Shown: positions 1 through 16,279, numbered from the stretch's first letter. The stretch: 64,000 bases of DNA from an uncultured Candidatus Saccharibacteria bacterium (GCA_964544935.1 CAZJDZ010000002.1:30668-94667); one strand, 5' to 3'. The notes: generated by a model from the sequence alone, not told the origin. Program-made: numbers and translations.

Positions 1-82
1 AAAAGAATTATATGCGCACTGAGTGCGTCTACCAATTTCAAAAACTGAGCTAGATTTATAAAGTTGTTCAAAAATAAAATAT

Positions 83-164
83 GCCCGGGTGGCGAAATTG
101 GTAGACGCACTTGCCTTAGGAGCAAGCGAGGTAACTCATGAAGGTTCAAGTCCTTTCCCGGGCA
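83..164 (+). tRNA. tRNA-Leu, anticodon UAG
   Basis: GCCCGGG acceptor paired with CCCGGGC. Anticodon stem cttgc/gcaag with loop cTTAGga gives anticodon TAG. Long variable arm and T-arm GAAGG-TTCAAGT-CCTTT. Near-identical in layout to E. coli leuW-type tRNA. CCA is not encoded. Confidence 0.9.
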
Positions 165-179
165 CAACATAAAAAATGA

Positions 180-203
180 GACATCTTTTGATGTCCATTT
201 TTT
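180..203. terminator. Short hairpin (gacatc/gatgtc) with an A-run on one side and a T-run on the other; terminator-like element after tRNA-Leu
   Basis: 6-bp stem with tttt loop, followed by cattttttt. Weak. Confidence 0.35.
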
Positions 204-218
204 AGTTGCGCCCGGGAA

Positions 219-310
219 GCAAGTGACCTGCGTCACTTGCGTAAGGACTTGAATAGGGGTCGCGAAGTCTTATATTTTGTAATCAAAATAGACTTGGTGA
301 CCAAGTCCTT
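219..310 (+). repeat. tRNA-adjacent structured repeat, copy 1: 5' hairpin GCAAGTGAC-ctgc-GTCACTTGC, then AAGGACTTGAATAGGGGTCGCG, a variable hairpin, then GGTGACCAAGTCCTT
   Basis: The 65-nt core is identical to 1041-1105. An outer helix AAGGACTTG/CAAGTCCTT encloses GGTC...GACC and an inner hairpin aagtct/agactt. The outer stem matches the T-arm of tRNA-Leu (TTCAAGTCCTT). Confidence 0.6.
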
Positions 311-413
311 ATGATTTTAGTATATTTTCATAAAAACTTGTAATTGCTGAATGGAAGATTTGATATCCTTTCTATATAACGAGAGTTCAGAAAGTCACGA
401 AATTGGAGCACAA

Positions 414-458
414 AATAATAAACACCCATTTGTAATCAAAATGGGTGTTTATTATTTT
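414..458 (+). terminator. Strong intrinsic terminator (aataataaacaccca / tgggtgtttattatt followed by ttg)
   Basis: ~15-bp perfect stem with a T-rich tail. The loop ttgtaatcaaaat recurs inside the variable hairpin of repeat copy 1. Confidence 0.6.
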
Positions 459-471
459 GCGAGCATTATAA

Positions 472-561
472 GCAAGTGACCTGTGTCACTTGCGTAAGGA
501 CTTGAATACGGGTCGGAAAATCATCTGTGACGCAGGAGCTGATTTTGTGACCAAGTCCCTT
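472..561 (+). repeat. tRNA-adjacent structured repeat, copy 2; same architecture, different variable hairpin aaaatca/tgatttt
   Basis: Keeps the 5' hairpin GCAAGTGAC-ctgt-GTCACTTGC, GTAAGGACTTGAATACGGGTCGG and GTGACCAAGTCCCTT. The inner hairpin has a different sequence but the same fold. Confidence 0.6.
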
Positions 562-574
562 GTCGTAATAGAAA

Positions 575-607
575 AATGCCCCACCGAAGCGGGGCTTTTG
601 GGTGGGG
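575..607. terminator. GC-rich hairpin with two alternative pairings (gcccc/ggggc followed by tttt, or ccccacc/ggtgggg), lying between convergent transcripts
   Basis: Read directly from the sequence; it sits just before the stop of the minus-strand ORF ending at 618. Confidence 0.45.
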
Positions 608-617
608 TGTGGTTCGT

Positions 618-920
618 CTACTTGATCTTGGCTTCATTCAGAAGCGCTTTGGCTGTTTCGATGTGTCCAGCCTGAAGCAGTCCGAAAAGATGTTGGTTGC
701 CATCCTGGATGGAGACAACAAAGTGCTTCTCAAGGTCTCCTTCTGAAAAGGTGACCTGGTAGACACTTTTCGGAAGAAATAGTGACTTGAAGTTGCGAAT
801 TGAGCAACGAACAACCCTCCATCCCTTTTTTTCTGCTTCTTCAAGAAGCAGAGCATACTCCCTGTCAGGTTTTTCGCTTGATGGGACAAGCAGGCTGAGA
901 AGTGCGAGTTCCAAAAACAT
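618..920 (-). CDS. Hypothetical 100-aa protein, moderately GC-rich
   Basis: ATG is preceded by a strong SD (acggaggt) and by TTGACA-N17-ATATAT on the minus strand. No family recognised. Confidence 0.5.
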   Translation of the reverse strand: MFLELALLSLLVPSSEKPDREYALLLEEAEKKGWRVVRCSIRNFKSLFLPKSVYQVTFSEGDLEKHFVVSIQDGNQHLFGLLQAGHIETAKALLNEAKIK

Positions 921-1040
921 TGAGTACCTCCGTAGGTAATAGTTTGAAGACCAAAATTACACAAATATAATATATCATACTATGTACATTTGTCAAGCAA
1001 TTTTCGCCTGAATTTACTTCTCTTTTCTGCTCTTTCTATC

Positions 1041-1107
1041 GTAAGGACTTGAATAGGGGTCGCGAAGTCTTATATTTTGTAATCAAAATAGACTTGGTGA
1101 CCAAGTT
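1041..1107 (+). repeat. tRNA-adjacent structured repeat, copy 3; lacks the 5' hairpin and its 3' end diverges (CCAAGTTCTC)
   Basis: Positions 1041-1105 are identical to 241-305, so this is a direct repeat bracketing 306-1040. Confidence 0.6.
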
Positions 1108-1118
1108 CTCACATTATT

Positions 1119-1271
1119 TCATCTCATTGGATTTTCTCCTCTGATAATCCTAATGAGGAAAAATACAACCGCGATTATAAGAAGAATGTGGATAAACGAA
1201 CCTAGGATATGGAATCCGAGGAATCCTACAAGCCAGAGAATGATAAGCACTGTTGCAATTGTTGTAAGCAT
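1119..1271 (-). CDS. Small 50-aa hydrophobic membrane protein (MLTTIATVLIILWLVGFLGFHILGSFIHILLIIAVVFFLIRIIRGENPMR); resembles the lmo0937-type small membrane protein family
   Basis: Translated by hand from the minus strand; single ATG directly after an in-frame stop. The family resemblance is from memory. Confidence 0.45.
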   Translation of the reverse strand: MLTTIATVLIILWLVGFLGFHILGSFIHILLIIAVVFFLIRIIRGENPMR

Positions 1272-1451
1272 GGTGAATGTTGTGTAGAACTTCTCTTACA
1301 GTACGTGACTAGTTAGAATACATGAAAGAATGAGAAACAGCACATAGTGCGAGATGGGTTCTTGTTAGATTAATAAAACTAAAAGTTCCTCACATGTTCA
1401 GTGTACGCTTTTTACAGGAAATAGTAAGCAAAATTTTTATATACTATAGAA

Positions 1452-1488
1452 GAAAAATAAAAAAGCGGGGCGACCTTCGTCGCCCCGC
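1452..1488 (-). terminator. Minus-strand intrinsic terminator (gcggggcgac-cttc-gtcgccccgc followed by a T-run on the minus strand)
   Basis: 10-bp GC stem; the A-run at 1452-1464 on the plus strand is a U-tract on the minus strand. Downstream of the ORF ending at 1590. Confidence 0.55.
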
Positions 1489-1503
1489 ACCATACACCAT
1501 ACA

Positions 1504-1546
1504 AAAGAAAAAACCCCACATACTGTCATCACGACATGAGTGGGGT
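1504..1546 (-). terminator. Second minus-strand terminator hairpin (ccccac...gtgggg followed by a U-tract on the minus strand)
   Basis: Tandem with the hairpin at 1452-1488. Confidence 0.5.
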
Positions 1547-1589
1547 CTTGTGTGTTACCTGCATTGCACAGATAACGGTTGCAGTTTGG

Positions 1590-2651
1590 TCAGGCAGCGA
1601 GGGGTTCTCGCTTCGGTTCAAAGACCATGAGGTCGTAGCAGGCCTTGCTTGAGGCGCTGACGACACAGATGCGGCCAGTCGGGTTTCCCTGCGAGTGCTC
1701 GCGGAAAGCAACGGCAAGCGGCGTCTCCCAGGTCTTCCGCGCGGCGGCGACATCAGCACTGCTCTTGTAGAGCGGTACTTCCGTCGGAATCCCCCCGAGC
1801 TTGACCATGATGATGTCTTCTGCGCTCACTGCGAGCGTCATCGTGGAAGGCTTCAGGCCGGCTTGGTTCAGTTCCGACTTGTTGTCGGAGACTTCGGTCT
1901 CGCCACGGCGGACCTTCCTGTCTGTCAGGAAGAAGTAGCTCTTCGAGGCGCCTTCTGCATCAACGATGATGTAGTGTCGATCGCCGATGAGGCGAGGGAG
2001 TTCATCTTCCATGACCGGAAGGCCGCTGCGCTTTTCGCCGGTTGCCGTGTAGGCGACCTTGATCTGGCGGGCCAGCAGCTCTCTCGCGAAAGTTGCTCGC
2101 GCGGCCAGGCGTTCTTCACGTCGGGCATCAACCTCTGCGGTCCGCTGTGCCTGCCTTTCGAGGTGGGCTTGACGCTCGACTGCGAGACGCTCATCCACCA
2201 GGATCTGTTCGTTCTTGGTGAAATTGGGTTCGAGATCGAGGCCACGAGCGATTGCGATCTTCAGGTCGAGCAGTCGCTCGACCGAAGACCCTCCGACGAG
2301 TTTCGTCATGCCATTGACTGTGATCATGTGGGCCGTCTCGAAGTCTTGTGTCGGGAGCACCGACAGCACATACTTCGAGTTCAATCCGACGATGATCGGA
2401 CAGGGTTCGCTGTCGATTTCGATCAGGTCGGCAAACGGTCGGATACCGGAGGTCTGGAAAGTCCAGGCCTTGACGCCGTTCACCATGACCTTTGCCGGGC
2501 GGTAGCCGTCGTCGTCAGCACCGAAGAACTTGTCCGAACGGAACATCTGGAGTTCGATCTTGATGTCGTTGGGCGCCGTCCAAGAATGGACGATCTCGTG
2601 ACCCGCGTGGATCTTGAGTGCCGGCGAGACAGCGATGGTACGGGTGCTCAT
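1590..2651 (-). CDS. GC-rich hypothetical protein of ~353 aa starting MSTRTIAVSPAL; likely horizontally acquired
   Basis: The ORF track extends it to 2771 via a GTG that sits inside the promoter -10. GC content jumps exactly at the ATG at 2649-2651. A coiled-coil-like segment rich in Arg, Ala and Glu in the middle. No family recognised. Confidence 0.6.
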   Translation of the reverse strand: MSTRTIAVSPALKIHAGHEIVHSWTAPNDIKIELQMFRSDKFFGADDDGYRPAKVMVNGVKAWTFQTSGIRPFADLIEIDSEPCPIIVGLNSKYVLSVLPTQDFETAHMITVNGMTKLVGGSSVERLLDLKIAIARGLDLEPNFTKNEQILVDERLAVERQAHLERQAQRTAEVDARREERLAARATFARELLARQIKVAYTATGEKRSGLPVMEDELPRLIGDRHYIIVDAEGASKSYFFLTDRKVRRGETEVSDNKSELNQAGLKPSTMTLAVSAEDIIMVKLGGIPTEVPLYKSSADVAAARKTWETPLAVAFREHSQGNPTGRICVVSASSKACYDLMVFEPKREPLAA

Positions 2652-2762
2652 AGTGAATACCTTGCCTTTCTTGATGATCAATTCTTTGACCGGATTGTAG
2701 AGAACAACATATAGAAAGCTGGAGGCAACAAAGTTGCAAGCTACCTTACTTTCATGATTACT

Positions 2763-2790
2763 AGTATACACTAATTTATAAAATTGTCAA
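2763..2790 (-). promoter_or_regulatory. Minus-strand sigma70-like promoter TTGACA-N16-TATACT driving the GC-rich ORF 1590-2651; part of a duplicated ~45-nt promoter module
   Basis: The reverse complement reads atatacTTGACAattttataaattagtgTATACTagtaatcatgaaagt, near-identical to the module at 3995-4022. Confidence 0.5.
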
Positions 2791-2896
2791 GTATATTTTG
2801 GCTGGAAAAAGCAATTTTCTATATATATAAAATGGGTATTGAGCTTATTATATATTTCAAAATATAGAAAATAATCAATTTCGTCCCTGATGTATA

Positions 2897-2926
2897 TAAA
2901 AAAGAAAGAACCTCCGAGGAGGTTCT
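2897..2926 (-). terminator. Minus-strand terminator (gaacctcc/ggaggttc with a U-tract) after ORF 2962-3900
   Basis: Hairpin with an A-run at 2897-2907 on the plus strand. Confidence 0.5.
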
Positions 2927-2961
2927 TCACGCTACACATTGCATGCAGTGTTTGCCTTGGG

Positions 2962-3900
2962 TTAGGCAGCCACCATTTCGGTGGACTTCGACAGCTTGTC
3001 CAGCTTGGCGAGGATGTGGTCACGCAGCAGATTCGCATGCGTGAAGTACTCGTCGCCGAGTTCACGAGCAGCATCAGGGATGCCGGTCCCCAAGTCCTCG
3101 CTGTAGATCCAAAGGCCTGTGCGGACCCCATTCTTTGCGAGTGGGTGTTCCTCGGTCATGCTGATGACCGTGATGGTCATCTTCCCGTCGATGGGCTCTT
3201 GGACCACTACACATTGACTGCCTTGGTCGCCGGAGAAGCTGAAGCGACCGACAGTGTTCGAGGTGAACACCTTGATCGGCTTCAGGGTCTTCGTGTCATG
3301 GGTGGGCTTCACAGCCTGCCCATTGGAAGTTGCCAATTGAGGGCCGCCGTTGTGCTTGGAAGCGTTTCTGGCACGCTCTGCCTTGGCGAAGTCAATTTCA
3401 TGTGCGAGGTGTTCGCGCAGGAAGTTGAGCATCTGCTCTTGGATCTCGCCGCGCCAGCCGGAAAGCAGGTTGACCTGATCCGCCGGCTTGAACAGCCAGG
3501 ACAACGGAATGAAGACATCGCGGCACCCGAAGATGCCGAGGATGTCGGTCGCTTCCAGGTGGAGGGTCTCGACACGGTACGTGTCGTACACCAGCTGCCC
3601 GGTTTCGTCCATGTATCCGACGGCGTATTCGCCGTGGATGCCTGCGACCATGTTGCCGTAGAAGGAGCACATGTGCTCCAGCTCTGCCTGCGTGCGGATC
3701 GCCGCATCCTTGCGGGCTTGTTCGGCCAGCGCTCGGGAGCGCTCCGACTCTTGCATCAAGCGGGCAGCTTCACGGTCCTTGTTGGGGCGGTAGGAGGCGG
3801 GGATGGGGCCTTTCGGCTTCTTCGTGGCCACCGGTTCGGCGGTGCCACCCTTCTTGGCTGCCTTGGGTTGCTTTTTGGCTGGAATTTGCTTGCTCGACAT
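2962..3900 (-). CDS. GC-rich hypothetical protein of 312 aa with a Lys/Ala/Pro-rich N-terminal tail; likely horizontally acquired
   Basis: Start ATG preceded by AGGAG (gcaggagattcaaATG). Visibly GC-rich against AT-rich flanks. No family recognised. Confidence 0.6.
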   Translation of the reverse strand: MSSKQIPAKKQPKAAKKGGTAEPVATKKPKGPIPASYRPNKDREAARLMQESERSRALAEQARKDAAIRTQAELEHMCSFYGNMVAGIHGEYAVGYMDETGQLVYDTYRVETLHLEATDILGIFGCRDVFIPLSWLFKPADQVNLLSGWRGEIQEQMLNFLREHLAHEIDFAKAERARNASKHNGGPQLATSNGQAVKPTHDTKTLKPIKVFTSNTVGRFSFSGDQGSQCVVVQEPIDGKMTITVISMTEEHPLAKNGVRTGLWIYSEDLGTGIPDAARELGDEYFTHANLLRDHILAKLDKLSKSTEMVAA

Positions 3901-3994
3901 TTGAATCTCCTGCGCAATGTTTCAGCGCGTGGTGGATTGAAAGGTTCAACGAGAAAGAGTCTGGGGCTTGCCGCGGACAACTTTCATGTATTAT

Positions 3995-4022
3995 AGTATA
4001 CACTAATTTATCAAAATGTCAA
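3995..4022 (-). promoter_or_regulatory. Minus-strand promoter TTGACA-N16-TATACT for ORF 2962-3900; second copy of the promoter module
   Basis: The reverse complement reads atatacTTGACAttttgataaattagtgTATACTataatacatgaaagt. Confidence 0.5.
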
Positions 4023-4030
4023 GTATATAA

Positions 4031-4059
4031 TTGACAAAATACAATAGTATTATTATATT
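4031..4059 (+). promoter_or_regulatory. Plus-strand TTGACA-N17-TATATT promoter-like element, divergent from the module at 3995-4022
   Basis: Consensus hexamers; no obvious downstream plus-strand gene. It would give a short transcript antisense to the rbfA terminator. Confidence 0.3.
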
Positions 4060-4093
4060 ATTTATAATAATGCTTTGTAATATTAGTGGATTT

Positions 4094-4129
4094 GAGAAAG
4101 AAAATGCGCGACCCGAAGGGTCGCGCATT
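4094..4129 (-). terminator. Terminator of the infB-rbfA operon (aatgcgcgaccc-gaa-gggtcgcgcatt with a U-tract on the minus strand)
   Basis: 12-bp perfect GC-rich stem, 65 nt downstream of the rbfA stop. Confidence 0.6.
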
Positions 4130-4196
4130 CTATGTATTGGTATTGTATTTTTCTACTGTCTATCATCTACAGCGAAGCGATTTATATTCTGCTATT

Positions 4197-4601
4197 CTAG
4201 TTATCTTCCAGCTCGCTTTCTTTTTGTTCAGCAAGGCCAACGTATGCTTGATGTGCAGCCTTATCTTTTCGTAGTAGCTCGTCAACATGAAGACGATTCT
4301 TCTCTCCATAATCAATCTCTACTTCAAAAAATGGAATCACTTTTACAGGAAGCCTCTTCATAACGAAATGACGAAGCTCACTTCTCATACGCTTAGCAAA
4401 GTTAATTGCAGCATCCTCTTTGTTCTCTGGGAGTACAGTAATAAAAATAGTGCCATGCTTCATATCACGAGAAATATCTGTGCGAGTAACGGTGATCATA
4501 GAAGCGCCTGATGATTCACGCTGAAAAAAGTCCTGAGTAATACCGAGCACTTGCTGCTCTACCTGTAACTGGCGTTGTGATTTTGGTACATTTGCATCCA
4601 T
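4197..4601 (-). CDS. rbfA: Ribosome-binding factor A
   Basis: 134 aa. The ITVTRTDISRDMKHGTIFITV and VKVIPFFEVEIDYGE segments fit the RbfA pattern, and the classic position downstream of infB supports it. Confidence 0.75.
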   Translation of the reverse strand: MDANVPKSQRQLQVEQQVLGITQDFFQRESSGASMITVTRTDISRDMKHGTIFITVLPENKEDAAINFAKRMRSELRHFVMKRLPVKVIPFFEVEIDYGEKNRLHVDELLRKDKAAHQAYVGLAEQKESELEDN

Positions 4602-4677
4602 ATATTATTGGTTAGTGATAGGGTTAAGTGTGTTTTGTCTGCGTAGTCTGCTTTTAGTCTGCGAGGTCTGCGTCTTG

Positions 4678-6213
4678 TTAGATGCGAAGCTTCTCTACAG
4701 TAATTGCTTCAACCATATCAGAAGGAATCATTTCTACTTTACTTTCAATCATGAGACCACACTCGTTACCTTCCATAACTGATGATGTTTTGATCTTTTG
4801 TGACTGAAGTTCAACAATTCTTCCTTTGCCAAGCTCAACACCACGACGAACAATACGAACAAGTGCTCCGTTTTCGATACGGCCAGTTTCAACACGACCT
4901 CCGATAACATGCTTATCTTTTTGTGAACTGAAGTTTCGAAGCACCTTGAGTGTTCCAAGAATAGTTTCTTTTTCTTCAAAAGGAAGACGTTCTTCTACGA
5001 GCGTATCAAACCATTCTGAGAGTTTATAAATAATATCAAAAAGTTGTGGAGTGATGTTGAATCTGTCAGCTTGGTCACGAGCTTTTGCTTCCATCTTAAC
5101 TGCAAATCCGAGAATCACTGTCTTTTCATCAGATGACGCAAGCATGATATCTCCTTCTGAGATATTTCCTACGCCTTCTGCGATGATTTTGATCTTTGTA
5201 TCATCGGTCTCACGCTTTTTGAGTTCTGATTTTACAGCATCAAGAGTTCCAAGTGAATCAGCTTTTATGACAACAGGGATAACTACTTTTGCGTTACGAT
5301 AGATACGAGGATCAAGAACTGTCTTTACTGCGTTTTGTCTAGTCTCCTCTTGAAGTTTCTCCATAATCTTTTTATCAGATGAAGAAACGAAGATAGCCCC
5401 AGAGGTAGGTATCTCATCAAAGCCAGTTACTTTGATTGGTTGGCCTGCATGTGGGTTCTTAATTATTCGTCCTGCGAAGTCTTCGATGATACGAATAGGG
5501 GAGAGTGCTGTGCCAGCAACAATTGCACCACTAGCAGCAAGTGTCCCGTCTTTAAGAACAAGAGTTGCAGAGGTACCACGCTTTGGATCAACAAAACTTT
5601 CAAGGACGTAGCCTGTTGCTTCTGTTGCTAGATTTGCTTTAAGTTCATGCATATCTACAAGGAGAAGAAGTGTTTCAAGAAGAAAATCAACTCCTGTACC
5701 TGCCTTTGCAGAAATTTCAACACAAGGAATATCACCTCCGTATCCTTCGATGTAGATACCATTTTCCACAAGAGAGTTCTTTGTCTTCTGTATATCTGCG
5801 CCTGGCTTGTCTATTTTGTTGATTGCAACAACATACGGAAGCTTATGAGCATCAATTGTTTTCCATGCTTCAAGAGTTTGTGCTTTTACACCGTCTTCTG
5901 CAGAAACAATGAGAATAGCAATATCTGCAATCTCTACACCACGTTCACGCATACTTTGAAAAGCCGCGTGTCCTGGAGTATCAAGAAACGTGATAGGCTT
6001 TGTACTGCCATCCGGTTGCTTCTGGTTAACTTCGTAGGCTGAGATACGCTGTGTGATACCACCAGCTTCGCCGTCTACGACGTTTGATTTTCGAATATAA
6101 TCAAGAAGTGAGGATTTACCATGATCAACATGCCCGAGGACCGCGATGACAGGCTGACGAGAAACAGCTTCTTGTGAAGTGAGCTTTTTTGACATAATTG
6201 GAAGTAAGGGCAA
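4678..6213 (-). CDS. infB: Translation initiation factor IF-2, short form of 511 aa lacking the long N-terminal region
   Basis: GHVDHGKSSLLD G1 motif, DTPGH, NKIDK, C-terminal beta-barrel domains. Confidence 0.9.
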   Translation of the reverse strand: MPLLPIMSKKLTSQEAVSRQPVIAVLGHVDHGKSSLLDYIRKSNVVDGEAGGITQRISAYEVNQKQPDGSTKPITFLDTPGHAAFQSMRERGVEIADIAILIVSAEDGVKAQTLEAWKTIDAHKLPYVVAINKIDKPGADIQKTKNSLVENGIYIEGYGGDIPCVEISAKAGTGVDFLLETLLLLVDMHELKANLATEATGYVLESFVDPKRGTSATLVLKDGTLAASGAIVAGTALSPIRIIEDFAGRIIKNPHAGQPIKVTGFDEIPTSGAIFVSSSDKKIMEKLQEETRQNAVKTVLDPRIYRNAKVVIPVVIKADSLGTLDAVKSELKKRETDDTKIKIIAEGVGNISEGDIMLASSDEKTVILGFAVKMEAKARDQADRFNITPQLFDIIYKLSEWFDTLVEERLPFEEKETILGTLKVLRNFSSQKDKHVIGGRVETGRIENGALVRIVRRGVELGKGRIVELQSQKIKTSSVMEGNECGLMIESKVEMIPSDMVEAITVEKLRI

Positions 6214-6276
6214 TTATACCACATTTTTATAATATTTTCTAGTCTTTCTCTTGGAAGAGCTTGTTAATTTCTCGTG

Positions 6277-6762
6277 TTAGAGTTTCTTTTTTTCGTTTTT
6301 CTCTTTTGCTTCGTCAAGTACATACTGCTCTTCTTCAGTAAGTTCAAATTCTGATTCAAATGCTTTAATAGGTTTTGCGTAGAATGAAGTCCTATCGCGG
6401 TGATGAAGTGAAGAAAGAACAACGCCGTTACCTGTTTCGTCGATGAGTGCTACAGAGAAAGATTGATTACTTGCGCTTGACTCGAGTGCTTTGTAACGAA
6501 TAGAGTGTGCGTTTCGTACAGAGGTTTTGAGGCGATCATCAAGTGAGAGAAGATATTTAGAAATAAATTCATTTTTTTCTTCTACAGTTGCAACACTCGC
6601 GATGCAATTTGTAAGTGTGTCTTCAAGTGTCGCGCCATTTTTGCCTCGAGTAAGAATAGTGATTCTGTGATCAAGATAGAATACATAGATAATGAGGACC
6701 CCAAGAGAAACAGAAAGAGGAAGGGCAGGATTTGCAAAGATGAGTGTGAGAATGTGTTGCAT
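6277..6762 (-). CDS. Hypothetical protein with an N-terminal membrane anchor, 161 aa
   Basis: One N-terminal TM helix and a Glu/Lys-rich C-terminus. No family assigned. Confidence 0.5.
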   Translation of the reverse strand: MQHILTLIFANPALPLSVSLGVLIIYVFYLDHRITILTRGKNGATLEDTLTNCIASVATVEEKNEFISKYLLSLDDRLKTSVRNAHSIRYKALESSASNQSFSVALIDETGNGVVLSSLHHRDRTSFYAKPIKAFESEFELTEEEQYVLDEAKEKNEKKKL

Positions 6763-7052
6763 GGCAAGAATTATATTGAAACAAGTAACTACAATAAATC
6801 AAAAAAAAGAATAGTCCTGTGTATAGAGATTGTATCATGTGTATAAAGATGGGTGTGAATAGAGATATATGGCTTAAGTCGCTTTAGGTACAATGCAAGC
6901 CTCACGTTCTTTCTGGGGTATTTTATAGCAACGAGAAACGACATCAGGAACTGACATGGAAAGGAAGTCGCCGTTTTAAAAGTGCAAAGTTGTACGAATA
7001 TAAAATTGATATTGCTGCGCTATAAAAGTTGACAAAAATAAATTATAAGTTG

Positions 7053-7082
7053 ACAAAAGTTCTGTTGTTCATGTACACTGAA
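7053..7082 (+). promoter_or_regulatory. Candidate promoter (TTGACA-N18-TACACT) for the small peptide gene at 7205
   Basis: Tandem TTGACAAAA boxes at 7030 and 7053. Weak. Confidence 0.3.
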
Positions 7083-7204
7083 CCGCGAGTTACTCAAAGA
7101 AACTGCGTTTCTTTACATGAAGTAGAGAAGAACAGAAAGGAGAAAACTTCAGTTCTTTGTGTTCTCGTGGATAAAACTCCCAACGAAATAGAAAGAGATC
7201 TGAT

Positions 7205-7486
7205 ATGCCACCAATGAAACACATCTCGATGATGGCTGCTGCAGTTGCCATGCTGGCGGGTGCTGCCATCCCGGTCTCGGCCAAGTCGACACCGGACACC
7301 CTGAGTGCCCCGGATCTGCCGGCACCCATGCCTCAGCCGGTGATGGTCGCGCCACCGTCTTTCCAGGACTCCGCACCACCTCCTCCGAGCGGCCCACCCA
7401 AGGCTGCCGATGCGGTCGAGGTGATCATGCCGCCTCCGGCTTTCGTCACAACTGACACCAGCCAGGATGATCAAGTGACCCTCTGA
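7205..7486 (+). CDS. GC-rich small secreted Pro-rich protein, 93 aa, with a signal peptide
   Basis: N-terminal hydrophobic stretch MMAAAVAMLAGAAIPVSA followed by Pro-rich low complexity. Intrinsic terminator immediately after. Confidence 0.55.
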   Translation: MPPMKHISMMAAAVAMLAGAAIPVSAKSTPDTLSAPDLPAPMPQPVMVAPPSFQDSAPPPPSGPPKAADAVEVIMPPPAFVTTDTSQDDQVTL

Positions 7487-7501
7487 GGCAACTTGGTCCC
7501 C

Positions 7502-7529
7502 AGCCCCACCATCACGGTGGGGCTTTTTA
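7502..7529 (+). terminator. Intrinsic terminator (agccccacc-atca-cggtggggct followed by ttttt)
   Basis: 9-bp GC stem plus T-tract. Confidence 0.7.
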
Positions 7530-7573
7530 TGTTATATAATGCCGTCTGGTTTTATTGTTATCAGATAAAAAAC

Positions 7574-7596
7574 TTGACAAATACTTTATATATGAT
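7574..7596 (+). promoter_or_regulatory. Promoter-like cTTGACAaatactttatatatgat; spacing to the -10 is ambiguous
   Basis: Perfect TTGACA. TATGAT sits only 11 nt away, so an alternative -10 is possible. Confidence 0.35.
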
Positions 7597-7600
7597 AGGG

Positions 7601-7719
7601 TGTTTTTTGTCGCTCAAGAACTGAGCGATACGGGCGGAACCATCTTTGGTTCCGCATAGTTGTCAATGTAGCGACCGTTGGTCTCGCAACCACGTTAGCC
7701 ACTACCCAAGGAGAGAACG
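7601..7719 (+). promoter_or_regulatory. GC-rich 5' leader; its last ~60 nt are paralogous to the leader at 8576-8635 and include the RBS (ggtctcgcaaccacgttagccactacccaaggagaga)
   Basis: About 36 of 40 nt identical to the other leader just before the ATG. Contains the hairpin ggaaccatctttggttcc. Confidence 0.45.
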
Positions 7720-8166
7720 ATGATCAAGAAGATGATGATGTATCTCGCAGCCATGGTTGCTGCCTTCACCTTCGCCGTGCCCGCGGCGTTCGCAGCTCCC
7801 TCCAACACCAACGAGAGCTTCTCGTTCCGTGAGACGGTGCAGCCGCCTTCGGTCTGCTCGTGCAAGTGGAAGGGGTGCACCTTCGGCTGCAAGCCGAAGG
7901 CACTCGCTGATGACCTCAAGGCGCTGATGGCGCAGGAGGTTGCGGTTGCTTCCGAGCAACAACCGGACGGCCGAAGGAAGCCCACGCGCTGCTCGGGCCC
8001 GACGTGCATCCTGAAGGGCTCAGCTGCCGACCCCATGGTCACTTCCTTTGTCGACAGCTTCATGCCGGCCGATTCCCTGGATCCGGACGGCCGAAGGAAG
8101 CCCACGCGGTGCATCAGCAATCCGAAGTGCACCCGTGCCAGTTTGGAAGGCTCCACGTCGAGCTGA
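7720..8166 (+). CDS. GC-rich secreted Cys-rich small protein, 148 aa, with a signal peptide and two copies of the motif PDGRRKPTRC
   Basis: Signal peptide MIKKMMMYLAAMVAAFTFAVPAAFA. Eight Cys residues. 26-nt internal DNA repeats at 7963-7988 and 8083-8108. Confidence 0.6.
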   Translation: MIKKMMMYLAAMVAAFTFAVPAAFAAPSNTNESFSFRETVQPPSVCSCKWKGCTFGCKPKALADDLKALMAQEVAVASEQQPDGRRKPTRCSGPTCILKGSAADPMVTSFVDSFMPADSLDPDGRRKPTRCISNPKCTRASLEGSTSS

Positions 8167-8215
8167 TCCACGTGCACTGGATGATCAAGAAATCTTTTAC
8201 AGGATGACTTGATCT

Positions 8216-8252
8216 CCAACCCCACCCATCAGGGTGGGGTTTTTCTTTTTTT
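8216..8252 (+). terminator. Intrinsic terminator (aaccccaccc-atca-gggtggggtt followed by tttcttttttt)
   Basis: GC stem plus a long T-tract. Confidence 0.7.
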
Positions 8253-8406
8253 ATAGATACGTGTATGAGTAGATATTTGAATTATTTTTATAGTTTTTAC
8301 TATTATTGAATACAGTTATCAGCTAATGTTTGTCTTGAAAATTCATAAAAAGTGTATATATAATAATGTTTTTAGTTGATTATAATCATTTGTCAACGTA
8401 AGGTGC

Positions 8407-8434
8407 TTGACAAATATTTTGTATATGCTATACT
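8407..8434 (+). promoter_or_regulatory. Sigma70-like promoter TTGACA-N16-TATACT
   Basis: cttgacaaatattttgtatatgcTATACT. Confidence 0.5.
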
Positions 8435-8436
8435 AC

Positions 8437-8635
8437 ATCTTGTCGCTGGATAGTCGGTAGCGTAAGCCCGTAAGGGAATCGCCTCCAACATCCTTTGCCT
8501 GCTGGTCATTCAAGGCCTGCCGGCGTCGCCGCGACGTTGAGCGGCGGGGTCACCTGACCTTGCCGCGACAGTACCTTCCACAACGGCAACCGTCGGTCTC
8601 GCGACCACGCTAGCCACAACCCAAGGAGAGAGACC
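8437..8635 (+). promoter_or_regulatory. GC-rich ~200-nt 5' leader; its 3' end is paralogous to the leader at 7601-7719 (ggtctcgcgaccacgctagccacaacccaaggagagagacc)
   Basis: Conserved RBS-proximal block. Internal hairpin cgccgcgacgttgagcggcg. Confidence 0.4.
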
Positions 8636-8776
8636 ATGAACCGTCTGACCCATGCCCCGCCGACCAGTACCCATCTGAGTCATACCTCCGGCACCAAGAT
8701 CCTGGGCCTGTCCGCCTGCACCTCCGCCAAGCTGGCCGCCGCCGGCGCCCGAACGCCGGCCTCCGGCATCAGCTGA
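8636..8776 (+). CDS. GC-rich 46-aa peptide (MNRLTHAPPTSTHLSHTSGTKILGLSACTSAKLAAAGARTPASGIS); possibly lipobox-like (LSAC)
   Basis: ATG immediately after the conserved leader/RBS. Too short to appear in the ORF track. Speculative. Confidence 0.35.
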   Translation: MNRLTHAPPTSTHLSHTSGTKILGLSACTSAKLAAAGARTPASGIS

Positions 8777-9045
8777 CCGGTCGCGTTGGCCAAGCACATC
8801 GTCGCAGGCGGCTCATTGAAAGCGTTGTGAACTCTGTTCACTCCACTTGTCTTTGGCCGCCTGCGCGATGAACTCGCCGCACTGCGCGCGCTGCTTGCGT
8901 GCCACGGCCTCAGGTGGTCTGCCTCGAGACATCTGTAGGCGGTCCGCGGCGAGTGTCTCCGCCCCCCGAAGCCCATCTCGGCGGGGTAACCTCGGAGCTA
9001 GTTAACTTAGGACTAGCGTCATTCCGAAAGACCTGAAAGACTAAG

Positions 9046-9082
9046 TCTCCCCGAACCGCAAGGTTCGGGGGGTTTTTATTTT
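9046..9082 (+). terminator. Intrinsic terminator (ctccccgaacc-gcaa-ggttcgggggg followed by tttttattttt)
   Basis: 11-bp stem plus T-tract. Closes the GC-rich block at 8777-9045. Confidence 0.65.
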
Positions 9083-9083
9083 T

Positions 9084-10415
9084 ATGGTAGAGTTTATATA
9101 TATGTTTTCATTTTTTATACAACAAGGTTTACGTCTGCGCGGTCTGAATACGTCTGCGCGGTCTGTATCTAGTCGGGTGTATTTGGATAATGCTGGGGCG
9201 ACAGAGGTAGGAGAGCGCGCGAAGCGCGCTCTCCTAGAATCACTCGACGTATACGGCAACCCCTCAGGTATTCACAAAGAGGGGACAGAGGCAAGCGTGT
9301 TACTTGATAAAGCACGCGCACTCTGTGCAACAGTGATCAACGCACATGCATATGAGGTGTATTTCACTTCATCTGGTACAGAGTCATGTAATCTTGCAAT
9401 CCTCGGAACCTATGATGCATTTGCTACAAACTACAAACTACAAACTACAGGCTTAGCCGCACTCCCTCACATCATTGTTTCTTCTATTGAGCACCCTGCA
9501 GTTCTCGAACCTGTTCGAAGATTGGAGAAAGCGGGGAAGATTCGAGTGATCTATCTTCCAGTATATGAAGATGGAATAGTAAAGGTGAATGATCTTATAG
9601 AAGCACTTACTGACGAAACTATCTTGGTAAGTGTTATGTATGCTAATAATGAAATTGGGACACTGCAACCTATTAAAGAAATTGGTCGAGCGATAGAAAA
9701 CTGGAAACGTGAGAAAAACCTTCCACACACTGCATATCCATATTTTCATACTGATGCATGTCAGGCAGCAAATTACTGCAATCTAGATGTGCTCCGACTT
9801 AAGGCTCATATGATGACTGTTAATAGTAGTAAGGTATATGGTCCGAAAGGGTCTGCATTTCTGTACAAACGTGAAGGAGTAAAACTTTCTCCGCTATCAC
9901 ATGGTGGTGGGCAAGAGCGTACACTTCGTAGTGGGACAGAAAATGTTGCGAGTGCGTATGCATTTGGAGTTGCGCTTACTGAGGCTCAAAATATGAGAGA
10001 AGAAGAAAGTGCGCGCTTGCGCGCGCTTCGTGACGAGACAGTTGCGTCACTAAAAAGTTCAATCCCCTCAATTATTTTCTACGGAGCATTTGATGAGTAT
10101 TTTGAATTGCTACCAGCTACTAGTCAAAAGCTAAAGGCTGTCCAACGTCTCCCAAATAACATCAACTGTCGAGTACCGGGTATCTCAAGTGAGGAGATGA
10201 TTCTTCGTCTTGATGCACAAGGGTTCGCTGTCTCACATAAGTCAGCTTGTGCGTCTATGGAAACTGATGGCAGTTATGTGGTTACAGCACTTGGTGCAAC
10301 AGAAGATGAAGCCCGTGAAAATATTCGTATTAGTATGGGAAGGAGTACAACAAAAAAAGATATGGAAAAATTTGTGAAAGCAGTACAAGACATAGCTAGT
10401 AAATACAAAAAATAA
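9084..10415 (+). CDS. Cysteine desulfurase (class V aminotransferase, NifS/IscS family)
   Basis: YLDNAGAT and GNPSGIHKEG segments, a PLP-lysine region SSKVYGPKGSAFLY, an active-site Cys loop HKSACAS, and GGGQERTLRSGTENV. The true start may lie downstream of the first ATG. Confidence 0.8.
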   Translation: MVEFIYMFSFFIQQGLRLRGLNTSARSVSSRVYLDNAGATEVGERAKRALLESLDVYGNPSGIHKEGTEASVLLDKARALCATVINAHAYEVYFTSSGTESCNLAILGTYDAFATNYKLQTTGLAALPHIIVSSIEHPAVLEPVRRLEKAGKIRVIYLPVYEDGIVKVNDLIEALTDETILVSVMYANNEIGTLQPIKEIGRAIENWKREKNLPHTAYPYFHTDACQAANYCNLDVLRLKAHMMTVNSSKVYGPKGSAFLYKREGVKLSPLSHGGGQERTLRSGTENVASAYAFGVALTEAQNMREEESARLRALRDETVASLKSSIPSIIFYGAFDEYFELLPATSQKLKAVQRLPNNINCRVPGISSEEMILRLDAQGFAVSHKSACASMETDGSYVVTALGATEDEARENIRISMGRSTTKKDMEKFVKAVQDIASKYKK

Positions 10416-10505
10416 ACTGCATGTCACAGTTCTTGACATGTTTCTAAACATAAGTAGTATTAAGATATTCTTGTTTGTTAGTAGTTTCTTGAACTGGAGG
10501 CCAGT

Positions 10506-10994
10506 ATGGTCCTTGAAGACTATGAAGGATATTCGGTATCTCAATTTGCAAGAGTGCTTTGGCGCGCCCTCTTTGAATATTACGAAGCTTTAGAAACAAG
10601 AAGTCAGAAGTTCTTTTACCTAGAAGGTGTCGATCCACTTGATGGTAAGACCCCAGGGGAGTCGATACGAGTATTGTATCTTGGGCTTAAGACAGATGAA
10701 GCTCGCGATAACTTTGTTTACGCTATCAAGGAGCTCCTTGAGACAAGACTGCATATGTCAGTGAGTGAGCTTTTCCAAGATATTCTTTGTGTTACTTTTG
10801 ATCTGCGGCGCCATGAGTTACTTGTGCCACTTGCCAAGTGTTTCTGTAGGCGTCAAAGTGACACCGATACACAGAAACTTGTGATTCTAACAAAAATACT
10901 TTTGATTATCGGAGCTATGCGTGAGCATCCCTCTGCACAAAAAGCAGTAAGGATTCTAAAAAAAGCATCAAAGACTTTTGCTAAGCAGACATAA
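10506..10994 (+). CDS. Hypothetical protein, 162 aa
   Basis: Clean ORF with a TTGACA-N16-TAGTAT promoter upstream and a terminator downstream. Confidence 0.5.
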   Translation: MVLEDYEGYSVSQFARVLWRALFEYYEALETRSQKFFYLEGVDPLDGKTPGESIRVLYLGLKTDEARDNFVYAIKELLETRLHMSVSELFQDILCVTFDLRRHELLVPLAKCFCRRQSDTDTQKLVILTKILLIIGAMREHPSAQKAVRILKKASKTFAKQT

Positions 10995-11031
10995 TACATG
11001 TACTAGGCTAAAGAGCAGTACAAAGTAAGCA

Positions 11032-11066
11032 CCCTAACCTTTTGGTTGGGGTTCTCTTTTTTATAA
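11032..11066 (+). terminator. Intrinsic terminator (caccctaacc-tttt-ggttggggtt followed by ctctttttt)
   Basis: Stem plus T-tract. Confidence 0.55.
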
Positions 11067-11125
11067 GTCTACTAAAAGTAGATATGATATACTTTTTGTA
11101 TTATTGATAACTAAACTACTATAGT

Positions 11126-11686
11126 ATGTATATTGCAAAAGATTTTTCACATTTGCTTGGTCTTACTGGATTAAGTGATGCGCTCCTCAATAATCACTTC
11201 ACTCTGTATCAAGGGTATGTGACAAACACCAATAAGTTGATTGAGCTTCTAAAAGATAAAGAAGCAGGGACACCAGAATATGCAGAACTTCATCGTCGTT
11301 TTGGGTGGGAATGGAATGGCATGAGACTTCATGAGCTTTACTTTGAAAATATTTCTAAGAATCATGTTCCATTAAGTGAGCGTACGCTTAAGCAGAAGAT
11401 AGAAGGCACATGGGGATCGGTAGAAAACTGGGAAAAAGAATTCAGGGGTATGGCTGCTATGCGTGGTATTGGTTGGGTGGTACTTGCTCATGATAAAAAA
11501 GATGGAAAGCTCTTCAACATCTGGGTAGGGGAACATGATGAAGGGTACCTTGCAGGACTTACACCGCTTCTTGTTATGGATGTATTTGAACATGCGTTTA
11601 TGCTTGATTATGGTATTAAGCGTGCAGACTACATCAATACATTCATGTCATCAATTGATTGGCATGTGGTGGAGGAGCGAGTGTAA
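11126..11686 (+). CDS. Fe/Mn superoxide dismutase family protein
   Basis: C-terminal GWVVL...PLLVMDVFEHAFMLDYGIKRADYINTFMSSIDWHVVEERV matches the SOD signature (DVWEHAYY...NW..V). N-terminal NHFTLYQGYVTN resembles the His-His region. Confidence 0.75.
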   Translation: MYIAKDFSHLLGLTGLSDALLNNHFTLYQGYVTNTNKLIELLKDKEAGTPEYAELHRRFGWEWNGMRLHELYFENISKNHVPLSERTLKQKIEGTWGSVENWEKEFRGMAAMRGIGWVVLAHDKKDGKLFNIWVGEHDEGYLAGLTPLLVMDVFEHAFMLDYGIKRADYINTFMSSIDWHVVEERV

Positions 11687-11732
11687 CAGAACGCAGACTT
11701 TGCAGACTACTGCAGACGTAATACATAAGTTA

Positions 11733-11762
11733 AAAGCGGCGCCGTAGGTGCCGCTTTTATTT
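11733..11762 (+). terminator. Intrinsic terminator (aaaagcggcgcc-gtag-gtgccgctttt)
   Basis: GC stem plus T-tract. Confidence 0.65.
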
Positions 11763-12028
11763 GTCATTTTATATTGATTTGTCAAGTTGACTATCATGCC
11801 ATAATTTGAGAATGTAAAGATACCTACTCAGTAAAAGTAGGTATGGTTCTTATCCTGAAATGACTGCTTATCCACCACGACTGCTAGACGTTATTCTGCT
11901 ACACTGTATATGTATTTGAAAGATATAGTTCGTCCGTTTTGTAGTAATTATGTATTAGTAGTTTGTGTTTACTTTATTAGATTTTTTGAATCAGCTAATG
12001 CCTAAAGGCTACAACCTAATAGTTATCT

Positions 12029-14746: not shown

Positions 14747-14767
14747 TTAAGAAATAATAGTTTGTTA

Positions 14768-14810
14768 AAGCAAAAAGAGTGACGCCTACGGCGTCACTCT
14801 TTTTGCTTTA
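14768..14810. terminator. Bidirectional intrinsic terminator (aaagcaaaaagagtgacgcc-tac-ggcgtcactctttttgcttt)
   Basis: ~20-bp stem flanked by A and T runs. Confidence 0.7.
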
Positions 14811-14891
14811 ATCTTCATTTTTTGCTAGAATATTCTGTACTGTTCTTACAAAGGTTTTTTGTATAGCTTTGTATTAGCAAGAAAAATACAT

Positions 14892-14975
14892 GCGTCGGTG
14901 GTGGAGTGGTCAATCACAACAGACTGTAAATCTGTCGCCCTTCGGGCTTCGAAGGTTCAAATCCTTCCCGGCGCA
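14892..14975 (+). tRNA. tRNA-Tyr, anticodon GUA
   Basis: Acceptor gcgtcgg/ccggcgc. Anticodon loop ctGTAaa. Long variable arm typical of bacterial tRNA-Tyr. T-arm GAAGG-TTCAAAT-CCTTC. CCA is not encoded. Confidence 0.9.
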
Positions 14976-15020
14976 CTGAATGAAAAATACCTAAGTAACA
15001 ACTTGGGTATTTTTCATTCA
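14976..15020. terminator. Long AT-rich hairpin (ctgaatgaaaaatacc...gggtatttttcattcag) directly after tRNA-Tyr
   Basis: ~15-bp stem; a processing or termination element. Confidence 0.45.
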
Positions 15021-15034
15021 GCTCTGCCACAGAG

Positions 15035-15128
15035 GCAAGACAACTGCTTGTCTTGCGAAGGATTTGAATACGGGGTCGCGGAGCTTCTTCGACGAACGAA
15101 GTGAGGAGGAGCTCTGTGGCCAAATCCA
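15035..15128 (+). repeat. tRNA-adjacent structured repeat, copy 4, covariant: 5' hairpin GCAAGACA-actgct-TGTCTTGC, GAAGGATTTGAATACGGGGTCGCG, variable hairpin gagct...agctc, GTGGCCAAATCC
   Basis: Same architecture as copies 1-3 with compensatory changes. The outer stem now matches the tRNA-Tyr T-arm (TTCAAATCC). Confidence 0.55.
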
Positions 15129-15235
15129 ACACAGCATAGATTTATTACCAGTAGCATACATCTTTTGTGCCATTTTTGGATGTAAGAAGATATACTTATG
15201 TACCTGTTGTTATGCCGTAGTATCAGATACATTAT

Positions 15236-15268
15236 ACAAAAAGAAACCCGCCTAACTGCGACGGGTTC
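15236..15268 (-). terminator. Minus-strand terminator (aacccg...cgggtt with a U-tract) after ORF 15308-15862
   Basis: Hairpin plus an A-run on the plus strand at 15236-15244. Confidence 0.5.
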
Positions 15269-15307
15269 CGTGCGGTTGGCGGGTGTGTTCAGACTTGAAT
15301 GAACGGA

Positions 15308-15862: not shown

Positions 15863-16035
15863 ACCAGTCCTTTACTTTCTCCGCTTAGCGGAATTATGAC
15901 GTCGCTTATGGATAGTTCCAGATCGCGGGCCAATTGGTTGCTGCTAGAGGACTTGCCTAACGGTTTCGTCATAGCAGGTAATAGCCATGTAAATCGCTAC
16001 TTTCTGCTATAACGAAACCCCTAACTCCTGGTACA

Positions 16036-16064
16036 TATATAGCACATTTATATTAATTTGTCAA
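16036..16064 (-). promoter_or_regulatory. Minus-strand promoter TTGACA-N17-TATATA followed by a ~190-nt structured 5' UTR
   Basis: Reverse complement aatatTGACAaattaatataaatgtgcTATATA. The UTR contains a ~15-bp hairpin ggtttcgttatagcag...ctgctatgacgaaacc. Confidence 0.5.
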
Positions 16065-16279
16065 TATTTTCTCCTGATTTGCTTGAACTTTTCTGCCTTT
16101 TCAATTGTTATTATCTTGTTGTATCAATAGAAGTGCTCTTATATGAGACGTTGAATAATATTTACAAGTTTGTTTCTAATTTTCGCTTGAAAAGTTGGAT
16201 ACCTAGTATCTCGATTCAATGTGATGCTAGCTCTCTAAAAAAATGCCGGAAACTACCCGTACTCAGGAGTTAGTTTTTT

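Follow-up and report, generated by a model that had tools for sequence, protein, structure and literature searches.

Does a block of GC-rich genes beside a tRNA gene in an AT-rich genome have to be a recent import? This question is raised by a stretch of 64,000 nucleotides (nt) from an uncultured Candidatus Saccharibacteria bacterium (GCA_964544935.1, CAZJDZ010000002.1:30668-94667), which as a whole is called the window in the following, with positions counted from its first letter. Between a tRNA-Leu gene and the terminator of the infB-rbfA genes it carries two open reading frames (ORFs), gene A (1590-2651) and gene B (2962-3900), with a GC content of 60% compared to 40.3% for the window. An atypical composition next to a tRNA is routinely taken as a sign of recent horizontal transfer, and the original prediction, made from the sequence of this region, had proposed an island acquired from a high-GC donor, for example the actinobacterial host of an epibiont, and placed under native promoters. 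While its description of the two ORFs and of the borders on both sides was correct, that reading fails here. We consider it probable that the interval from infB-rbfA to tRNA-Leu has long been a variable slot, which houses clade-restricted and fast-evolving genes with maintained G/C-ending codons and is turned over by recombination.

Base composition and codon usage

The GC content at the first, second and third codon positions (GC1, GC2 and GC3) is 0.62, 0.43 and 0.73 in gene A and 0.60, 0.42 and 0.77 in gene B. The thirty-odd core genes of the window show a GC3 of 0.19–0.36, and the spacers between the GC-rich ORFs go down to 12–27% GC. Neither the adjacent rbfA nor the gene for a small DUF5670 membrane protein on the other side has an elevated GC3, the latter being of ordinary AT-rich composition (GC3 0.37). 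It is the ORFs, and not the promoters or spacers, that carry the G/C-ending codons which are rarest in the core genes. The switch from AT-rich to GC-rich had been placed exactly at the start codon of both genes. This is true for A, where the GC content steps from 0.38 to 0.60 between adjacent 40-nt bins after a 105-nt leader of ~38% GC, but not for B, where the rise starts ~80 nt upstream of the start codon and thus inside the leader.

The amino-acid composition of both proteins is close to that of the core proteins (Ala 10.5% vs 7.3%, Arg 6.5% vs 4.4%, the others being similar). The synonymous choice is inverted toward the rarest codons of the host: from the core genes to A and B the codon fraction rises from 0.05 to 0.41 for GCC, from 0.03 to 0.42 for CTG, from 0.07 to 0.63 for GTC and from 0.42 to 0.93 for AAG, and third positions hold 0.31 G and 0.45 C compared to 0.15 and 0.13 in the core genes. 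GAA/GAG and CAA/CAG are both used near 50:50, which differs from actinobacterial usage. The comparison of codon usage, which had been suggested as a check on the import, therefore gave no actinobacterial-like pattern, and the amino acids are core-like. Enolase and other housekeeping genes show an unshifted codon usage, so that the GC-rich ORFs form a discrete class and no gradient of expression; high expression with translational selection was rejected as the cause of the GC3 for the same reason. A milder compositional class of a different kind is formed by the ribonucleotide reductase genes nrdA and nrdB (46463-50651) with an intermediate GC3 of 0.40 and 0.50; their two-fold codons are shifted and their four-fold sites are core-like.

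The slot in related genomes

To place the organism we used infB, which is 82–90% identical to that of ~15 species-level metagenome-assembled genomes of Patescibacteria, also known as Candidate Phyla Radiation (CPR), labelled variously as Saccharibacteria, Paceibacterota or Gracilibacteria; from these sequences we assign it to the Patescibacteria/CPR. Among the loci and contigs compared (numbered with the letter L), L001-L007 show the same synteny and the same GC-rich ORFs between AT-rich spacers. GC-rich blocks are also located directly 3' of rbfA in L009, L011, L013, L015, L016, L018 and L019. The slot ORFs of these reference genomes are B-like in L018, A-like in L016 and otherwise belong to several other families, for which a remote homology to A or B was rejected by profile comparison. 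In L034 and L036 the gene following rbfA is GC-rich and lies on the opposite strand, and an A homologue comes next; in L034 an insertion sequence (IS)-type transposase of the rve family, ordinary and AT-rich in composition, lies between these two genes (8862-9797). The tRNA-Leu is found at the end of the locus in L001, L003 and L034 as well, in the opposite relative orientation.

The region is thus accessory and variable, as had been supposed: its content differs between relatives, and gene A is exchanged between lineages. Only the 618-920 cassette described below is sporadic in its presence, as the slot is otherwise filled by A, B or other GC-rich genes in the relatives. Since homologues with the same bias share this context in the relatives, which the original prediction itself had named as the finding to speak against its import, a fresh acquisition from a high-GC donor is rejected. 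All contigs on which relatives of A and B were seen in context are CPR chromosomes carrying core genes. Searches of 5.8 billion indexed clusters, 185,579 species genomes and IMG/VR, together with an exhaustive one of 1.84 billion representatives, gave no homologue from viruses or high-GC organisms; the homology search for a donor returned only relatives from CPR contexts, and nothing ties the two genes to the host of an epibiont. Pattern-based locus scans of limited sensitivity also detected neither A nor B in JGI metagenomes and IMG/VR.

Hallmarks of known mobile or diversifying elements were searched for as well. No integrase was matched by Pfam among the ORFs scanned in 170-4130 (A, B, a 100-aa ORF and the DUF5670 gene), and there are no att-type repeats derived from the tRNA 3' end, which the local repeats do not match. 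An integron array can be dismissed with no integrase, an own promoter and terminator for each module, and repeats that flank the 618-920 cassette only. For a diversity-generating retroelement no pair of template and variable repeats with adenine-specific mismatches that involves A or B was found within 1-17000 (a reverse transcriptase was not exhaustively sought in the rest of the window), and the divergence of A spans the entire ORF.

Protein family A and gene B

In a word-indexed protein search, where coiled-coil words dominated the output, A seemed to be an orphan; using an exhaustive search against 1.84 billion representatives we found a CPR-wide family of at least 83 clusters, the 83 representatives being nearly all 320–360 aa in length and 25–47% identical. 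We define family A by a length of ~320–360 aa, an N-terminal beta domain, a long charged helix and a C-terminal beta domain with the sequence GLNSGT; a further motif is G-x-PV-x(2)-[DE]-E-W-x(2)-L. The protein of the window can be aligned from end to end with 39 representatives and belongs to this family, with the GLNSGT position being diverged. Invariant residues in the alignment are K131, E148, R195, G205, G210, P212, E217 and L221. An AlphaFold2 (AF2) model built from a 40-sequence alignment, with a predicted local distance difference test (pLDDT) of 88, shows a beta-rich N-domain (19-119), a short helix (124-137), a 49-residue charged helix of Arg, Glu and Ala (146-194), in line with the Arg/Glu/Ala coiled-coil that had been predicted, and two small beta domains (198-255 and 279-344). 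Structure searches with this model gave no fold match, the best hit in BFVD having a template modelling (TM) score of 0.08.

Neither A nor B matched anything in Pfam, PHROGs, PADLOC, NCBIfam or the PDB sequences, with single sequences as well as with profiles, and the same holds for curated, defence, phage and solved-structure matches of 40 family A members and ten positional analogues. PADLOC was negative for all of these proteins except for two weak single matches, no toxin or antitoxin domain was recognisable in A, B or their relatives using Pfam and PADLOC, and PHROGs and IMG/VR scans were negative for a phage origin of A, B and relatives. The statement that neither protein has a recognisable family therefore stands for curated families, but neither of them is an orphan. 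With family A a sizeable uncharacterised CPR protein family is defined, which has a confident structural model and no fold match.

In each of the eight loci that were examined, the A gene ranks first in GC content. In L030, L033, L034, L036 and L038 it is the richest in GC of its neighbourhood on genome backgrounds of 36–50% GC, and the GC content of the family genes is 0.46–0.61 in hosts of 0.36–0.50. Its GC3 is 0.41 in L030 (neighbours 0.20–0.41, most of them < 0.38), 0.54 in L033 (neighbours 0.25–0.40) and 0.75 in L038 (neighbours mostly 0.45–0.56, one unannotated ORF 0.74). None of the family members shows the amino-acid composition of a high-GC proteome, the maximum ratio of Gly, Ala, Arg and Pro to Phe, Tyr, Met, Ile, Asn and Lys (GARP/FYMINK) being 1.73. 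The distant members in other CPR lineages are found in the order DsbB-A-peptidase C39 (L030 and L033) or RNase J-A (L038). The protein encoded after these A genes, with DsbB before them, is a Peptidase_C39_2 protein (L030 9163-10308, L033 3766-4320), which in L030 is fused to a PemK/MazF-type toxin domain. Judged from gene order, the conserved DsbB/Peptidase_C39_2 neighbourhood might be a hint to the function of A, and it is the only contextual one.

Gene B has four relatives, which are 47–83% identical, and a half-length relative; its N-terminal half is also present in L018. All relatives are GC-rich (GC3 0.65–0.76) and located between AT-rich spacers, with the order infB-rbfA-B-A wherever the contig extends far enough. 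In a pattern-based scan of limited sensitivity no B relative was detected in 185,579 species genomes. As predicted the N-terminus of B is rich in Lys: a disordered Lys/Ala/Pro-rich part (1-40) is followed by a long helix (41-78). The AF2 model of B is unreliable (pLDDT 47.6) and too poor for a structure search. Taken as a group, the slot ORFs encode clade-restricted, uncharacterised cytoplasmic proteins.

Divergence and probable allele replacement

To compare the slot genes with their flanks we determined synonymous and nonsynonymous divergence (dS and dN) between the window and L001. Whereas dN/dS is ~0 for the 3' end of infB (dS 0.35, dN 0) and 0.006 for rbfA (dS 0.74, dN 0.004), it is 0.36 for B (dS 0.21, dN 0.074) and 0.39 for A (dS 1.3 and therefore saturated, dN 0.51). 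The alleles of A keep a GC3 of 0.60–0.76 despite the saturated dS, and the dS of B is lower than the 0.35–0.74 of infB and rbfA. Judged from these alignments, the GC-rich codon usage persists through saturated synonymous divergence and is also carried by family A members in other CPR lineages and at other genomic locations.

The sliding nucleotide identity to L001 is 85–95% over infB, rbfA, both promoters, B and the terminators, and it drops to ~55% exactly over the ORF of A (window 2636-1552), the leader and promoter of which are 85–88% conserved. For rbfA the identity is 99% between the window and L001 and 95.5% between the window and L034, for A it is 45% in both of these pairs and 58% between L001 and L034. 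Accordingly the trees disagree, as rbfA pairs the window with L001 and A pairs L001 with L034. Because the grouping of A conflicts with that of rbfA and the identity breaks at the edges of the ORF, A appears to have been exchanged in one piece by way of the conserved flanks, which points to a whole-ORF allele replacement between near-identical genomes. A turnover of the slot by homologous recombination through conserved flanks would be the general form of this process.

Using three outgroups we polarised the differences in B and counted 21 changes from GC to AT and 14 from AT to GC overall, and 9 and 4 at synonymous third positions. A free decay to the core equilibrium predicts ~10:1, from which these counts differ (p=0.025 for synonymous, p=9e-7 for all positions), and neither count differs from 1:1. 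The contigs L001-L004 are identical and hence offer no polymorphism among them for the polarisation. The outcome of the polarisation is conservative, as the expected parsimony bias runs toward GC-to-AT changes. The GC3 of B thus seems to be not measurably decaying, that is, no amelioration is visible.

Promoters, leaders and C-terminal alanine

The island that had been proposed is not unique, as further GC-rich modules of the same format are found at 7205-7486, 7720-8166, ~8500-9040 and 15308-15862. The predicted modular layout of terminator, ORF, leader and promoter was confirmed, with an own promoter and terminator for A as well as for B (Table 1). All GC-rich modules show a near-consensus sigma-70 promoter with a CTTGACA -35 box and a TATAxT -10 box, a leader of 90–200 nt and a strong Shine-Dalgarno sequence, which nearby core genes lack. 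The promoter regions of A and B form a 49-nt repeat with 88% identity (3980-4028 vs 2748-2796), that of B is 90% conserved in L034, and promoter snippets are 90–98% conserved in L034 beside unrelated or diverged ORFs.

The modules also have the ends of their proteins in common. A terminates with ...PLAA and B with ...MVAA, both non-polar C-termini ending in Ala-Ala as in an ssrA-like tail. Counting the ORFs in the window and in L001-L020, a C-terminal Ala is present in 15 of 24 GC-rich ORFs (>=130 aa) vs 4 of 182 ordinary ORFs of the same loci (p=1.8e-13). Such endings of GC-rich ORFs (...LAA, ...VAA, ...QAA, ...KSA and similar) occur in at least seven or eight unrelated families, and 23 of 82 family A representatives also end in Ala. 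This common signature is directly testable. Lys-rich disordered N-termini recur among the GC-rich ORFs without detectable mutual homology.

Three of the additional modules lie in 7025-9075 on the plus strand between a DUF4446 gene and a cysteine desulfurase gene. Two of their proteins, one Pro-rich (93 aa) and one Cys-rich (148 aa), have signal-peptide-like N-termini, and the 148-aa secreted protein contains an internal 30-nt repeat (7963-7992 and 8083-8112, 97% identical) encoding a repeated PDGRRKPTRC. The block at ~8500-9040 with 66% GC has no intact long ORF after a conserved leader and may be a pseudogene. Promoters (7573-7614 and 8406-8447) and leaders (7671-7716 and 8586-8631) are repeated among these modules, and the promoter at 8407-8451 is 98% conserved in L034, there beside a different GC-rich block. 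A 184-aa GC-rich ORF (within 15308-16040, GC3 0.65) without family match adjoins tRNA-Tyr and a copy of the structured repeat described below; its leader of ~180 nt contains a long imperfect hairpin. A search of the leaders against Rfam gave no family and only sub-threshold hairpin noise.

Alternative explanations

That we are dealing with an artefact, either an assembly chimera or GC-rich non-coding DNA with accidental ORFs including full-length antisense ones, can practically be dismissed. Long ORFs are indeed open on both strands (1695-2714 and 2890-3996 on the plus strand), but the aligned antisense frames carry 0–10 stops in homologues; as they are not kept open, an overlapping antisense gene was rejected, and it is the codon usage that leaves such long frames open as a side effect. 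The pattern GC3 > GC1 > GC2 of both genes exists on the minus strand only, and A and B are protein-coding because dN/dS is below 1 and the AF2 model of A is confident. A chimera, for which a check of the junctions had been proposed, is excluded because L040, an independent assembly, agrees with window 1388-4261 at 100% across all four AT/GC junctions, and because four sequencing runs gave one and the same assembly of a second strain, which has the same layout. That the genes were recently imported from a high-GC donor, for instance an actinobacterial host, and placed beside tRNA-Leu under native promoters, is very improbable to us. The atypical composition beside a tRNA gene and the lack of a curated family for both proteins would fit, yet orthologues with the same bias are in the same place in relatives, all homologues come from CPR-type contexts with none in the 185,579 species genomes, the amino acids are core-like up to the maximum GARP/FYMINK ratio of family A, GAA/GAG and CAA/CAG stay near 50:50, no decay signal is seen, and integrase as well as tRNA-derived att repeats are missing.

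The slot might also be refilled repeatedly from an unsampled pool of mobile GC-rich genes, the cassettes of which circulate among CPR bacteria by plasmids, phages or natural transformation and are partly ameliorated; this is a possibility of its own, although we regard it as rather unlikely. Different and unrelated families occupying the same slot in sister species, the incongruence of the A tree with the core genes, the IS transposase in the slot of L034, the 618-920 cassette between 99% identical direct repeats that is absent from relatives, the single promoter style across modules, as if they had one source, and the GC content of family A that tracks the host background only loosely would all agree with such a pool. 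However, neither A nor B has a member on viral contigs in the IMG/VR scans, the contig contexts seen are all CPR chromosomes with core genes, the window region has no integrase and no att-type duplication of the tRNA 3' end, and promoter and terminator remain at flank-like identity where the ORF of A was replaced. As the composition switches at the ORF boundaries and the spacers have 12–27% GC, the pool itself would need a GC enrichment restricted to ORFs, by which the problem is shifted and not solved. An excess of non-optimal G/C-ending codons has been described for recombining bacterial genes and attributed to GC-biased gene conversion (Lassalle et al. 2015, PMC4450053), and the direct sign of recombination and allele replacement at this locus would make a hotspot of such conversion, raising GC3 without any codon benefit, conceivable. 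Conserved flanks would also give few mismatches for biased repair and could in this way sharpen the boundaries. Nevertheless, as the cause of the codon usage we regard it as improbable: the shift amounts to about +45 GC3 points, and the effects in PMC4450053 are mean GC3 differences between gene classes and not of this size; the step occurs within ~40 nt of the start codon of A after a leader that stays AT-rich; alleles with 55% nucleotide identity were swapped whole without a heteroduplex to repair; the adjacent rbfA and DUF5670 genes are not elevated; and family A shows the trait in unrelated genomic contexts, too. Compared to the genes of PMC4450053 the slot ORFs are thus similar in their excess of non-optimal G/C-ending codons and different in that the effect is far larger, bounded by the ORF and travels with the family.

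We therefore return to a long-standing slot with maintained codon usage. Most probably it is selection, acting either at synonymous sites or on the composition of the mRNA, that maintains the G/C-ending codons, with GC-biased gene conversion as a possible contributor. Selection is favoured because the compositional switch coincides with the ORFs and follows the protein family, and because the dS of B is lower than that of its neighbours. Several points weigh against this explanation. The polarisation used few sites, 13 of them synonymous, and saturated or distant outgroups. The unrelated families filling the slot and the IS element in L034 are also what a repeated import of cassettes would give; only a handful of the 83 family A members could be placed on contigs, and the others could lie on unsampled mobile elements. 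The absence of any fold or family match leaves no functional anchor for A and B. The two genes may also not act together, since each has a promoter and a terminator of its own and A is found without B in other places, and a degron in the C-terminal Ala would be suggested by analogy only.

Relation to known systems and possible function

Hypervariable slots between core genes are already of a known kind. Like O-antigen and capsule loci or 'metagenomic islands', a type of island that is often located beside tRNA genes, the region has a fixed position, here between rbfA and tRNA-Leu, and a content differing among relatives, whole-ORF replacement via conserved flanks, a tree incongruent with the core genes and an IS element in one relative. 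Hypervariable islands are usually AT-richer than or similar to their host, and an odd composition is read as recent import. Here in contrast the slot is much GC-richer, in its ORFs only, with a bias that is common to orthologues over saturated synonymous divergence, and recognisable surface-polysaccharide, pilin or defence genes as in O-antigen or capsule-type islands are lacking. With tRNA-linked integrative islands it shares the adjoining tRNA gene, the atypical composition and direct repeats nearby, but it has no integrase, its repeats are a structured element of their own and not the tRNA 3' end, and its genes are syntenic in relatives instead of sporadic. The 'hypervariation' of PMC6851277 concerns repeat regions and was rejected as being the same phenomenon. 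In the literature searched no description of GC-rich gene classes in CPR was found. Unusual are the ~45-point GC3 excess, which is persistent and restricted to ORFs and is also seen in unrelated genes at the slot and in one CPR family, and the promoter and C-terminal signatures that the GC-rich modules have in common.

Two other systems are instructive with regard to a possible role. In Streptomyces the bldA/TTA control uses a single rare codon to gate translation. Similarly, the accessory genes described here use codons that are rare in the host, by which translation could depend on particular tRNAs, and tRNA genes adjoin two of the GC-rich modules, although this adjacency may be coincidental; here, however, the whole ORF is recoded and not a single codon. 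ClpXP recognises a C-terminal ...LAA as ssrA-type degron. The ends of A and B and the alanine found at the end of 15 of 24 GC-rich ORFs compared to 2% of the ordinary ones resemble such alanine tails, but they are encoded on full-length proteins and not added in ribosome rescue, and a recognition by a protease would be putative.

As speculative assignments, A may serve as a binding or scaffold protein without enzymatic activity, and B, with its Lys-rich tail, may be a nucleic-acid-binding protein. The fast protein evolution, with dN/dS of 0.36–0.39 in the slot genes vs < 0.01 in the flanks, and the swapping of alleles would suit a conflict or recognition with phage, host or kin. More speculatively, strong promoters and long leaders in combination with non-optimal codons and an ssrA-like C-terminal Ala might result in tightly limited amounts and a fast removal of the proteins. 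One could even imagine that this CPR clade keeps a separate 'codon dialect', in which selected G/C-ending codons, consensus promoters, leaders and Ala C-degrons together make up a translationally gated and rapidly cleared programme for proteins interacting with host, phage or kin, and in which composition would mark a regulatory class and not a foreign origin; we offer this as a tentative idea with a rather small chance of being correct in full. If the synonymous sites of a gene class are held far from mutational equilibrium, then a composition-based detection of islands and horizontal gene transfer in CPR would be misleading. It would also mean that an additional, unrecognised control layer, acting on translation, mRNA stability or biased repair, exists in organisms of largely uncharted biology.

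Other features of the locus

Table 1: Features of the variable slot, its flanking genes and the tRNA-linked repeats (positions in the window).
Feature	Position	Strand	Remarks
tRNA-Leu (anticodon TAG)	83-165	+	ARAGORN; Rfam tRNA 58 bits; delimits the variable region on one side
tRNA-linked structured repeat, copy 1	217-309	+	hairpin followed by a long-range stem around inner hairpins
tRNA-linked structured repeat, copy 2	470-558	+	
100-aa ORF	618-920	-	GC 0.46, GC3 0.49; own promoter 996-969, terminator 595-578
tRNA-linked repeat, copy 3 (3' part only)	1017/1040-1109	+	99% identical to 240-309
DUF5670 (lmo0937-type) membrane protein, 50 aa	1119-1271	-	Pfam E 1.3e-13
Intrinsic terminator of gene A	1465-1488	-	10-bp stem with 9 GC pairs, then T run; ~90% conserved in L001
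Gene A, 353 aa	1590-2651	-	GC 0.60, GC3 0.73
Leader of A (~105 nt) and promoter	2652-2790	-	TTGACA-16-TATACT (2790-2763)
Intrinsic terminator of gene B	2905-2928	-	
Gene B, 312 aa	2962-3900	-	GC 0.60, GC3 0.77
Leader of B (~88 nt, already ~50% GC) and promoter	3901-4022	-	TTGACA-16-TATACT (4022-3995)
Palindromic GC-rich hairpin 3' of rbfA	4103-4129	.	infB-rbfA terminator; other border of the slot
rbfA	4197-4601	-	Pfam RBFA; conserved core gene, synteny anchor
infB	4678-6213	-	conserved core gene, synteny anchor
tRNA-linked repeat, copy 4	15033-15085/15125		beside tRNA-Tyr

The small membrane protein of the lmo0937 type and the moderately GC-rich small ORF named in the original prediction were both found (Table 1). 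Of the structured repeat, which is ~90 nt long, the three copies reported after tRNA-Leu are present, but they are joined by a fourth one after tRNA-Tyr. It also follows tRNA-Leu in L001 (~4357-4407), in L003 and, at ~11450-11550, in L034. Its consensus fold has 27 predicted pairs, 8 of them with compensatory double changes, and includes a 9-bp hairpin with three covarying pairs; no Rfam family was matched. The element might be transcribed as a small RNA or serve as a site of recombination, or it might be a mobile element of miniature size.

Two 70-nt direct repeats (240-309 and 1040-1109, 99% identical) flank a segment of ~730 nt, which contains a perfect 21-bp hairpin (411-459), another copy of the repeat and the 100-aa ORF, for which Pfam gave a sub-threshold match to SH2_1 only. 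This segment is absent from L001 and L034, where the tRNA-Leu block is inverted relative to the window.

Further away, the leucyl-tRNA synthetase of the window (33987-36839) carries an inserted NUDIX domain at residues 386-499 (Pfam E 5e-12), and a gene in L030 starting at 16527 encodes a class I tRNA synthetase with matches to NUDIX and methyltransferase domains.

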